A DNA stretch of 64,000 bases from Clostridia bacterium (GTDB lineage Bacteria > Bacillota > Clostridia > Oscillospirales > CAG-272): contig JAFQRL010000024.1 of the NCBI GenBank assembly GCA_017410065.1, positions 6,173 through 70,172 of the forward strand. The letters run 5' to 3'. Numbering within the stretch: the stretch's first letter is position 1; each line of letters opens with the position of its first letter. Below, one piece after another: positions 10,075-10,715 of this stretch. The notes beneath the pieces were generated by a model that had not been told where the DNA came from, made no database searches, and saw nothing but the letters and a program-made list of their open reading frames with translations. The translations under genes and the position numbers were made by a program.

Positions 10075-10715
10075 ATATAGTGATGTTTTTGCTGACGCGC
10101 GATATGTTTGCAAGCAAACGCGATATACTCGCTTTGCTCGTGCGATATATTGTCGCTTTGCTCCAATGCGATATGATATAAATCCCTTCGTTTTAGCATA
10201 TCTCGCCTTGCGGCGAGTATGTTAAAACATATCGTTTGCGAAGCAAATATCGCTCCCGTTAGGGAATATCGCAAATCCTCGGGGGATTTATATCGCTGCG
10301 TGTTCTCCGTTAAGGATAACACGCTATATAGTGATGTTTTTGCTGATGCAAAAGTGATGTTATGCTACGCAAAATGATGTTGCTCGCCAAGCCTCGCAAT
10401 GATGCGATGTTTGCCCACTACGCCACAAGGCGTAACATCATTCACGCAGTGAACATCACTGCCGTAGGCAACGTTGGTGAAGTTTTTGCTATCGCAAAAG
10501 TGAAGTTGCACCGCGAACCCCCAAAGCTCATACTTCGCTTCGGGGAACCCCGTTTCAGTGAAGTTTGTACTACGCACAAGTGAAGTTAAGTTTGCCCATC
10601 ACTTCGCCGTCTGGCGAAACTTCACTCACGAAGTGAACTTCACTATCAGAGATAACTTCACTTGCCCAAAGGGCAAACTTAGTTAGCGTGATGCTACGTT
10701 AAGAGCATCACGCTA
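10075..10715. repeat. Composite of three hairpin-ladder elements (GCGATAT, GTGATGT and GTGAAGT linker types)
   Basis: Direct repeats of each 7-mer followed by its reverse complement, separated by mini-hairpins; two closing hairpins with CGTTAAG loops; 10556-10685 nearly identical to 56811-56940. Confidence 0.9.

Follow-up and report, generated by a model that had tools for sequence, protein, structure and literature searches.

The window analysed here is a 64,000-nucleotide (nt) stretch of contig JAFQRL010000024.1 from the Clostridia bacterium assembly GCA_017410065.1 (Oscillospirales; CAG-272). It corresponds to C22:6173-70172 of a genome (G000) of 2.37 Mb in 47 contigs (denoted C), 96% complete. 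In it a P-type ATPase gene (minus strand, start near 9965) and a GerA spore-germination gene (10778-12217) are divergently oriented, and the 812-nt gap between them holds three elements in which a 7-nt word is repeated between small hairpins. These elements carry no gene and belong to a repeat family, widespread in gut Clostridia, of which the Rfam motif Gut-1 (RF01706) is a part. Their parts are given below, together with a fourth full copy and a solo arm from elsewhere in the window; Gut-1 scores come from a search with permissive filters.

10075-10098, plus strand: duplicated fragment comprising ATATA, one GTGATGT word and a half-copy of element 2's first hairpin, seen in the sequence
10099-10324, plus strand: element 1, word GCGATAT; Gut-1 28.6 bits at 10224-10298, minus strand
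10099, 10120, 10142 and 10168, plus strand: left words of element 1, GCGATAT, exact
10229, 10247, 10266 and 10290, plus strand: right words of element 1, ATATCG[CT], exact
10175-10186, 10187-10228, 10273-10289 and 10298-10324: segment X, centre, last hairpin and terminal hairpin of element 1
10326-10470, plus strand: element 2, words GTGATGT/ATGATGT; Gut-1 19.9 bits at 10329-10385, plus strand
10331, 10354, 10374 and 10399, plus strand: left words of element 2, [GA]TGATG[TC], exact; further copies at 10080 and 10688
10435 and 10453 only, plus strand: right words of element 2, ACATCA[CT], exact
10406-10416: segment X of element 2
10477-10713, plus strand: element 3, word GTGAAGT; Gut-1 43.7 bits at 10614-10685, minus strand
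10477, 10500, 10558 and 10580, plus strand: left words of element 3, GTGAAGT, exact
10619, 10637 and 10655, plus strand: right words of element 3, ACTTCAC, exact
10507-10557, 10587-10597 and 10662-10676: long second spacer, segment X and last hairpin of element 3
10677-10685 and 10686-10713: partial word and terminal hairpin of element 3
56766-56969, plus strand: fourth full copy, word GTGAAGT; Gut-1 43.7 bits at 56869-56940, minus strand
1818-1950, plus strand: degenerate solo arm (ATTTCAT-type words, small hairpins), seen in the sequence just after a terminator

The 7-mer positions that a first-pass annotation of this DNA had assigned to the three elements are all exact, and element 2 is indeed truncated on the right, as that annotation had it, being without a last and a terminal hairpin; full relatives of it lie at C1:36555 and C42:23380. 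One 7-mer is expected by chance about 3.9 times per strand in 64 kb, and here four copies stand within about 76-110 nt. Folded as single-stranded DNA and judged against 200 shuffles each, elements 1 and 3 reach -57 (z -7.06) and -53 kcal/mol (z -7.54) and the fourth copy -45.9 (z -6.45), with 0 of 200 shuffles folding as well in each case. Element 1 has relatives of 92-94% identity at three to four loci (C42 and C40 among them), and copies of the element 3 type, 90-98% identical, occur at at least 14 other, unrelated loci.

At Rfam gathering thresholds (50 bits for Gut-1) the window gave no match. With permissive filters, the Gut-1 model aligned end to end (positions 1-77) with the right arms of element 3 (43.7 bits, E=4.4e-7) and element 1 on the minus strand, and likewise at full length with the left arm of element 2 on the plus strand. 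The Gut-1 feature of three hairpins set apart by conserved 7-nt linkers is present in the window, the hairpins lying in the register of the model and the linker word alone differing; it is these deviant words (GTGAAGT, GCGATAT and GTGATGT) that keep the window copies under the cut-off. In the whole genome we found 49 Gut-1 matches at E<=0.01, and the 13 above the cut-off carry the canonical word GTGAAAT or ATGAAAT. The window elements are therefore word variants of a known Rfam motif; their kind is known, and the first-pass view of an undescribed family falls. Other sub-threshold Rfam matches (TD-1, microRNA families, a CRISPR repeat and SpF03; E 0.18-4.1) were taken as chance. Gut-1 matches are present in 28 of 41 related genomes from several families of one order, above the cut-off in 21 of them, with up to 45 matches per genome. 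A pattern scan over one genome per species found canonical elements in many Clostridia genomes from animal and human gut samples. An assembly artefact, which copies in one assembly only would have indicated, is ruled out by the like elements in those relatives and in many independently assembled Clostridia genomes. In the portions of its original description that we consulted, Gut-1 appears only as a likely non-coding RNA of gut metagenomes (Weinberg et al., 2010; PMC2864571), and a methods paper of 2026 employs RF01706 as a test case. The motif shares with our arms its three small hairpins separated by GUGAAAU-type linkers, but is defined as 77 nt, about one third of a two-armed element of ~200-250 nt.

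An exact-word search recovered 46 loci in the genome on one common plan, in line with the structured multi-copy family first suspected. Two arms stand head-to-head, one with four copies of the word and the other with its reverse complement three to four times, separated by short G+C-rich hairpins. The full order is word plus hairpin three times, a fourth word, segment X, a central hairpin, reverse-complement word plus hairpin three times, a partial word, and a terminal hairpin or terminator. Words recur every ~18-24 bp and are uniform within an element (all eight agree); exactly four left and three right exact words were counted in 54 of 104 candidate elements from this genome and the fetched loci of others. 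The word types of this genome are GTGAAAT, GTGAAGT, GCGATAT, GTGATGT/ATGATGT, ATGAAAT, TTGAAAT and ATGAAGC; at least eight coexist on homologous scaffolds, differing by single bases, and mixed elements exist. Solo arms with no inverted partner are found as well, and at locus L121 of a relative (G023:C68:8300-9900) a purely direct array of ~22 modules (contig ~8830-9290), with the word GTGATAT and a 64-nt super-period, spans from the stop codon of one gene to before the next gene. Tandem clusters with partial modules, like that of the window, occur elsewhere too (for example on C40). A CRISPR array, an integron attC site and a replication origin were dropped on anatomy alone, there being no foreign-origin spacers, no integrase and ~46 copies per genome.

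Pairing within the small hairpins was assessed in 248 non-redundant spacers, taking as controls chimeras that join halves of two spacers from the same position, and shuffles. At least 4 uninterrupted Watson-Crick base pairs (bp) are formed in 74% of the spacers, compared with 9.6% of the chimeras and 3% of the shuffles, with 17-20 different stems per spacer position. The small hairpins covary strongly and are kept by compensatory change, in support of the structured family of the first-pass annotation. A second pairing joins segment X (8-12 nt after the fourth left word) to an exact complement that spans the 3' half of the last hairpin and the partial word. This complement is found in 38 of 51 oriented elements, in more than eight sequence variants, and in 4 of 51 when X is taken from another element; only two mismatches were seen, neither of them G.T. 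The resulting X:end stem (8-12 bp) surrounds the right arm, in competition with the last local hairpin.

The first-pass annotation had also argued for selection on pairing of the left with the right words into one long stem, like the rungs of a ladder. We evaluated this in 81 non-redundant elements, using 124 deviating left-arm words that have a ladder partner and permuting the deviant right words. Compensation at the ladder partner was found in 9 of the 124, against 12.8 expected (permutation 0.93), in a test of limited power, given that the words are uniform in most elements. Flank identity in the ladder register was 0.50, against 0.47-0.54 in shifted registers. Register-specific selection on the rungs gets no support, and direct-only arrays and solo arms exist. 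The joint change of linker and right arm between variants, from which the stem had been argued, is real, yet uninformative, because any word shared by inverted arms gives it.

C-GNA-G triloops and sheared G.A pairs make unusually stable DNA mini-hairpins; such triloops are favoured in DNA, not in RNA, and functional RNAs are normally rich in G.U pairs. As first reported, C-GNA-G triloops occur in the window: with stems of at least 3 bp, 10075-10715 holds four on the plus strand (TGC-GAA-GCA, CAC-GCA-GTG, GCC-GTA-GGC and CAC-GAA-GTG) and one on the minus strand. Across the oriented elements, read on the plus strand, the right-arm loops are predominantly C-GNA-G, with GAA (21), GCA (11), GGA (3) and GTA (3) among 83, and the left-arm loops have the complements TTC (19), TGC (9), TAC (8) and TCC (2) among 140, so that GNA triloops lie on the outward-reading strand of each arm in 38/83 and 38/140 cases. 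Left-arm mismatches are C.T or T.C in 42 cases, which correspond to G.A pairs on the opposite strand, and tandem G.A mismatches are frequent. From the polarity of loops and mismatches it follows that each arm favours one strand, on which its word takes an ATTTCAC-like form, and since the arms point outward from the centre the element has dyad symmetry. G.T pairs make up 8 of 1255 hairpin pairs, so the stems are almost wholly Watson-Crick, and G.T or A.C pairs were too few for wobble asymmetry to serve as a pointer to the functional strand. The GNA triloops and Watson-Crick-only stems lean towards DNA hairpins, which they fit better than RNA.

At the window locus, the synteny of the ATPase and GerA genes is kept in three relatives (G007, G003 and G043), and all three have an intergenic region without an element. 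The empty gap measures ~140-160 nt in two relatives and ~700 nt in the third, where it holds other sequence read as coding. The left junction at ~10074 is marked by a shared motif, TTTGTCAAC. The first 21 nt from 10075 recur exactly at 10326-10346 (C22:16498-16518, 100%); this duplication flanks element 1 and includes the start of element 2, and to judge by the sequence it looks as if element 1 had entered the first hairpin of element 2. Across 34 classifiable loci of the genome, the flanking genes are convergent at 15, tandem at 14 and divergent at five. The Y1 transposase family PF01797 had 0 matches in the 96%-complete assembly (control genomes gave matches), contrary to the HUH/Y1-type enzyme that the first-pass annotation thought possible elsewhere, and the reverse transcriptase family PF00078 was likewise absent from it; retroelement routes and routes through REP-associated tyrosine transposases (RAYTs) were dropped for this reason. 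The same annotation called the elements non-autonomous, which holds: the window copies carry no gene.

Tabulating the neighbours of 67 parsed elements, for which four-helix-bundle proteins had been among the suggested candidates, proved informative. It yielded a single recurrent cluster, an open reading frame (ORF) of ~115 amino acids (aa) at five elements, which is a four-helix-bundle gene. The linked protein, encoded outside the window, matches PF05635 with 79.9 and 90.1 bits (cut-off 33.8) and TIGR02436 with 101.4 bits, and is close to PDB 2RLD (E=4e-29), an entry with five chains. The genome has PF05635 at seven places, two of which are halves of one gene split at contig ends, giving six genes and one remnant. 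A hairpin-type element lies directly upstream of four of the six genes and of the remnant, and the other two genes have hairpin-less arrays of TGAAA-like words. In relatives, where 60 of 68 listed PF05635 loci were examined, a strict test, which asked for three or more exact words and hairpins immediately ahead of the gene, was passed at 34 of the 60, and 12 of 12 inspected "negative" loci displayed degenerate, solo or hairpin-less arrays by eye. At least three exact 6-mers occur within 175 nt upstream of 44 of 66 four-helix-bundle genes. Among the 41 genomes, 25 have both Gut-1 and PF05635 matches, three Gut-1 only, two PF05635 only and 11 neither (Fisher 7e-6, with kin that are not independent); the corresponding counts in 16 genomes of other families are 6, 2, 0 and 8 (p=0.007). 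In a phylogeny of 66 four-helix-bundle proteins, word class needs 22 changes (minimum 15), compared with 41.0 when shuffled and as few in 0 of 200 shuffles, and the ATATCG word class is one clade. Protein and array thus travel as a pair, and the tracking of protein by word class is compatible with a specificity that may co-evolve.

The linkage extends to tRNA genes. Of the four-helix-bundle loci, 50 had enough sequence upstream for a tRNA search; a same-strand tRNA gene is present at 26 of them, and none was found on the opposite strand. The nearest tRNA ends 156-296 nt, mostly 253-279 nt, before the start codon of the four-helix-bundle gene. When the 67 elements are considered, a tRNA lies within ~400 nt of 18, and 16 of 23 tRNAs face the right end, across the terminator. 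The complete form is a stereotyped unit on one strand: tRNA, terminator, Gut-1 arm, second arm and four-helix-bundle gene, with the element ~270 nt downstream of the tRNA gene and directly ahead of the PF05635/TIGR02436 gene. In many cassettes the last word is followed by a sigma-70-type promoter for the gene, the -35 box touching that word, whereas in others (L196, L186, L192 and O_C24) the start codon comes 11-30 nt after the last word, with only a ribosome-binding site in between.

Several loci vary this arrangement. At G000:C33:690-1700 a four-helix-bundle gene lies between inverted, hairpin-less TTGAAA-type word arrays and is also flanked by ~47-nt direct repeats, and a tRNA search around this gene found none. 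At G000:C24:34144-35805 two inverted GTGAAGT-type elements flank a 228-aa ORF to which no family was assigned, with a four-helix-bundle gene directly after. A second kind of array, with ~10-nt linkers (GATGATATACA or GATTCCATAC types) between hairpins, was seen at G000:C13:2138-2501, C7:40990-41064 and C43:9270-9708 and at L213-L225; in relatives such arrays follow a tRNA terminator and precede four-helix-bundle genes that form a deep clade. Two-armed word-and-hairpin elements were also found outside Clostridia, in a Bacteroidaceae record (L003) and an Akkermansia record (L005), the latter with a four-helix-bundle gene ~240 nt downstream. Contig ends fall within 300 nt of 9 of the 46 loci of the genome, and some can be joined through elements (C28 to C15, which share one split four-helix-bundle gene, and C24 to C20, whose ends overlap in a GCGATAT array), so the elements evidently break short-read assembly.

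Elsewhere in the window, the fourth copy comes directly after a terminator-like hairpin and ends in a terminal hairpin of the same kind as that of element 1. Just upstream of it, at 56400-56700, are two direct ~190-nt copies of another hairpin-rich intergenic repeat (best Rfam match only E=0.18), and directly downstream a perfect 33-nt tandem repeat (2.3 copies, 56992-57066) precedes an ORF that starts near 57160. The solo arm at 1818-1950 includes a duplicated ~39-nt unit and has a weak Gut-1 match (C22:7984-8053, window 1812-1881; 32.3 bits). Further repeats, at 13550-13656 and 13043-13131, comprise a 27-nt unit in 4 tandem copies (95% matches) and 30-nt units in 2.4-2.9 copies.

Our preferred reading, held tentatively, is that the window elements are orphan, non-autonomous copies in which the words are putative binding sites of a four-helix-bundle protein and the hairpins, together with the X:end stem, present them in single-stranded DNA (ssDNA). 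The words would be sequence-specific recognition sites and not rungs of a stem, and the hairpins structural spacers that would expose the words whenever the DNA is single-stranded. We propose a sequence-specific reader because pairing alone explains neither the uniformity of the words nor their uncompensated deviations. That reader would most likely be an oligomeric four-helix-bundle protein, different words accompanying its different paralogues; it is proposed because no other factor that we found combines matching diversity with physical linkage. The copies in the window would be derivatives that have spread to intergenic sites. The data show the architecture, the covariation of hairpins and X:end, the dispersal, the empty site and the linkage to tRNA and four-helix-bundle genes; we infer the identity of the reader, the preference for ssDNA over RNA and the movement of the copies.

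Several observations weigh against this proposal. The minimum-energy single-strand fold does draw word-to-word rungs, and in a longer-word family the loop polarity is different. No consistent target-site duplication was found, the only one being the 21-nt duplication around element 1, and to our knowledge no transposase-like activity is known for the PF05635 family. Only ~5 of ~46 loci of the genome adjoin a four-helix-bundle gene, and in the assembly the GCGATAT and GTGATGT families (elements 1 and 2) are without a cognate four-helix-bundle cassette. Three of the 41 genomes have Gut-1 without a PF05635 match, one of them only 63% complete, and plain co-inheritance of a cassette explains the protein and word-class tree equally well. 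Finally, tRNA, element and gene all lie on one strand with the tRNA at a fixed distance, and the 11-30-nt gap of some cassettes leaves no room for a promoter, both of which would suit a function at the RNA level.

Such an RNA-level function, which we regard as unlikely, would begin with transcription of the element, either by read-through of the terminator from the tRNA promoter or from a promoter of its own. The transcript would serve the four-helix-bundle gene as leader, processing site or protein-binding repeat RNA, much as in a type III antitoxin-like repeat array, and the orphans would be free small RNAs. Besides the shared strand and the cassettes with only a ribosome-binding site before the start codon, it can draw on the best Gut-1 match lying on the strand of the gene, on the classification of Gut-1 as a non-coding RNA by Rfam and in the consulted part of Weinberg et al. 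(2010), and on the parallel of the Coxiella intervening sequence with an S23p ORF, for which Warrier et al. (2016; PMC4990558) describe excision by RNase III. In one metatranscriptome run (a 0.05 share of the sampled words), contigs pile up over 10108-10777, with summed depths of 22.6-142.8 compared with 0-17.5 in the flanks; the data are unstranded, come from a multi-copy, multi-species element and may include DNA, and the pile-up is no more than a hint. Against transcripts as the functional form stand the near absence of G.U-type pairs (8 of 1255 in the hairpins, 0 in X:end), the triloops favoured in DNA, and the opposite loop polarity of the arms, by which any one transcript would carry the favoured loops in one arm only. 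Many cassettes, moreover, have a sigma-70-type promoter between element and gene, and no terminator separates array and gene as it does in type III toxin-antitoxin systems. A conserved promoter upstream of the first word was not found, orphans included; the A/T-rich box at that place is the -35 of the divergent four-helix-bundle promoter.

We consider it improbable that the element is an ssDNA fold-back, i.e. a long stem of 7-bp rungs with branch hairpins, stacked as four-way junctions, similar to REP/REPIN elements (introduced below) and moved by a Y1/HUH (RAYT-type) or other ssDNA enzyme. The minimum-energy single-strand folds given above pair left with right words (z -6.5 to -7.5). GNA triloops, Watson-Crick-only stems, multi-copy dispersal, the empty site and the predominance of convergent intergenic sites (15/34) are in keeping with such an element, and some subfamilies (C1:36555, C30:59080 and L178) display a mirrored order of word variants. 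The ladder tests, however, found neither compensation at the partner word (9/124 against 12.8 expected) nor better flank identity than in shifted registers, the direct ~22-module array and the solo arms do without opposed arms, and the genome has no PF01797 match. The well-supported X:end stem, in turn, encloses one arm and competes with the full ladder, and pairing alone leaves the use of the same word in all rungs unexplained.

It is very improbable that the inverted word arrays act as double-stranded DNA, as operator or transposon-end-like protein sites or as REP/BIME-like topological sites near strongly transcribed genes with the hairpins incidental, because, for all the dyad symmetry of the arms, the ~18-24 bp word spacing, the -35 box abutting the last word in many cassettes and the enrichment after tRNA genes and between convergent genes, the sequence of the hairpin spacers varies while their pairing persists (74% against 9.6%), and particular loop types are kept on one strand, and duplex binding explains neither loops nor pairing.

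Comparison with known systems places the family near several of them. Repetitive extragenic palindromic (REP) sequences, bacterial interspersed mosaic elements (BIMEs) and REPINs are intergenic repeats, short and structured, that occur in many copies, often close to the 3' ends of genes, and form inverted pairs and mosaic clusters. Our elements resemble them in all these respects, but lack a conserved REP palindrome of the GTAG type; the genome is without a Y1 transposase, and here the linker is constant while the hairpins vary, the reverse of REP arrays. A doublet kept as one long hairpin, as in REPINs, was rejected on the ladder compensation given above. Considered as miniature inverted-repeat transposable elements, they have inverted arms but no consistent target-site duplication, and their only recurrent neighbour is the four-helix-bundle gene, with no linked transposase. 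The intervening sequence of 23S rRNA with its S23p (PF05635) ORF, as far as the consulted portions of Warrier et al. (2016) describe it, likewise combines this protein family with a selfish, stem-forming element attached to a stable-RNA gene, and the C33 locus, too, has its gene between inverted word arrays. The present cassettes differ in lying after tRNA terminators and not inside 23S rRNA, with the structured part usually upstream of the gene and gene-less copies dispersed genome-wide.

Type III toxin-antitoxin systems (ToxIN-like) consist of direct repeats, a terminator and then the toxin gene. The likeness here is a short repeat array directly upstream of a small same-strand gene, with repeats that track the protein clade; in contrast, our arrays are inverted pairs, PADLOC gave no match, and the candidate was rejected since a promoter or a bare ribosome-binding site, not a terminator, lies between array and gene. 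The BOX elements of Streptococcus pneumoniae, compared by description only, are modular non-autonomous repeats with a similarly variable number of small structured modules; they have neither the repeated 7-nt word nor the linked protein gene found here. Our literature search, which did not cover the supplements of Weinberg et al. (2010), found no description of the two-armed plan with its enclosing stem, of interchangeable words, of evidence against rungs, or of the links to tRNA terminators and PF05635.

Gut-1 has stood in Rfam since 2010 as a gut-only "non-coding RNA" without context and is now placed as one arm of a two-armed modular element. PF05635/TIGR02436 proteins are very common, and we know of no role for them outside diversity-generating retroelements. 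Both gain a testable setting, in which the complete form lies between a tRNA terminator and a four-helix-bundle gene and gene-less copies have multiplied. A more far-reaching and rather doubtful possibility is that the arrays and PF05635 proteins constitute an unrecognised two-part selfish cassette that settles behind tRNA terminators, where each paralogue would read a 7-nt word of its own, shown in four to five copies with DNA mini-hairpins between them, words and proteins would diversify jointly, and gene-less arrays such as those of the window would spread and persist by using resident proteins in trans. If true, this would give the orphan Gut-1 motif, and PF05635 proteins outside diversity-generating retroelements, their first function.

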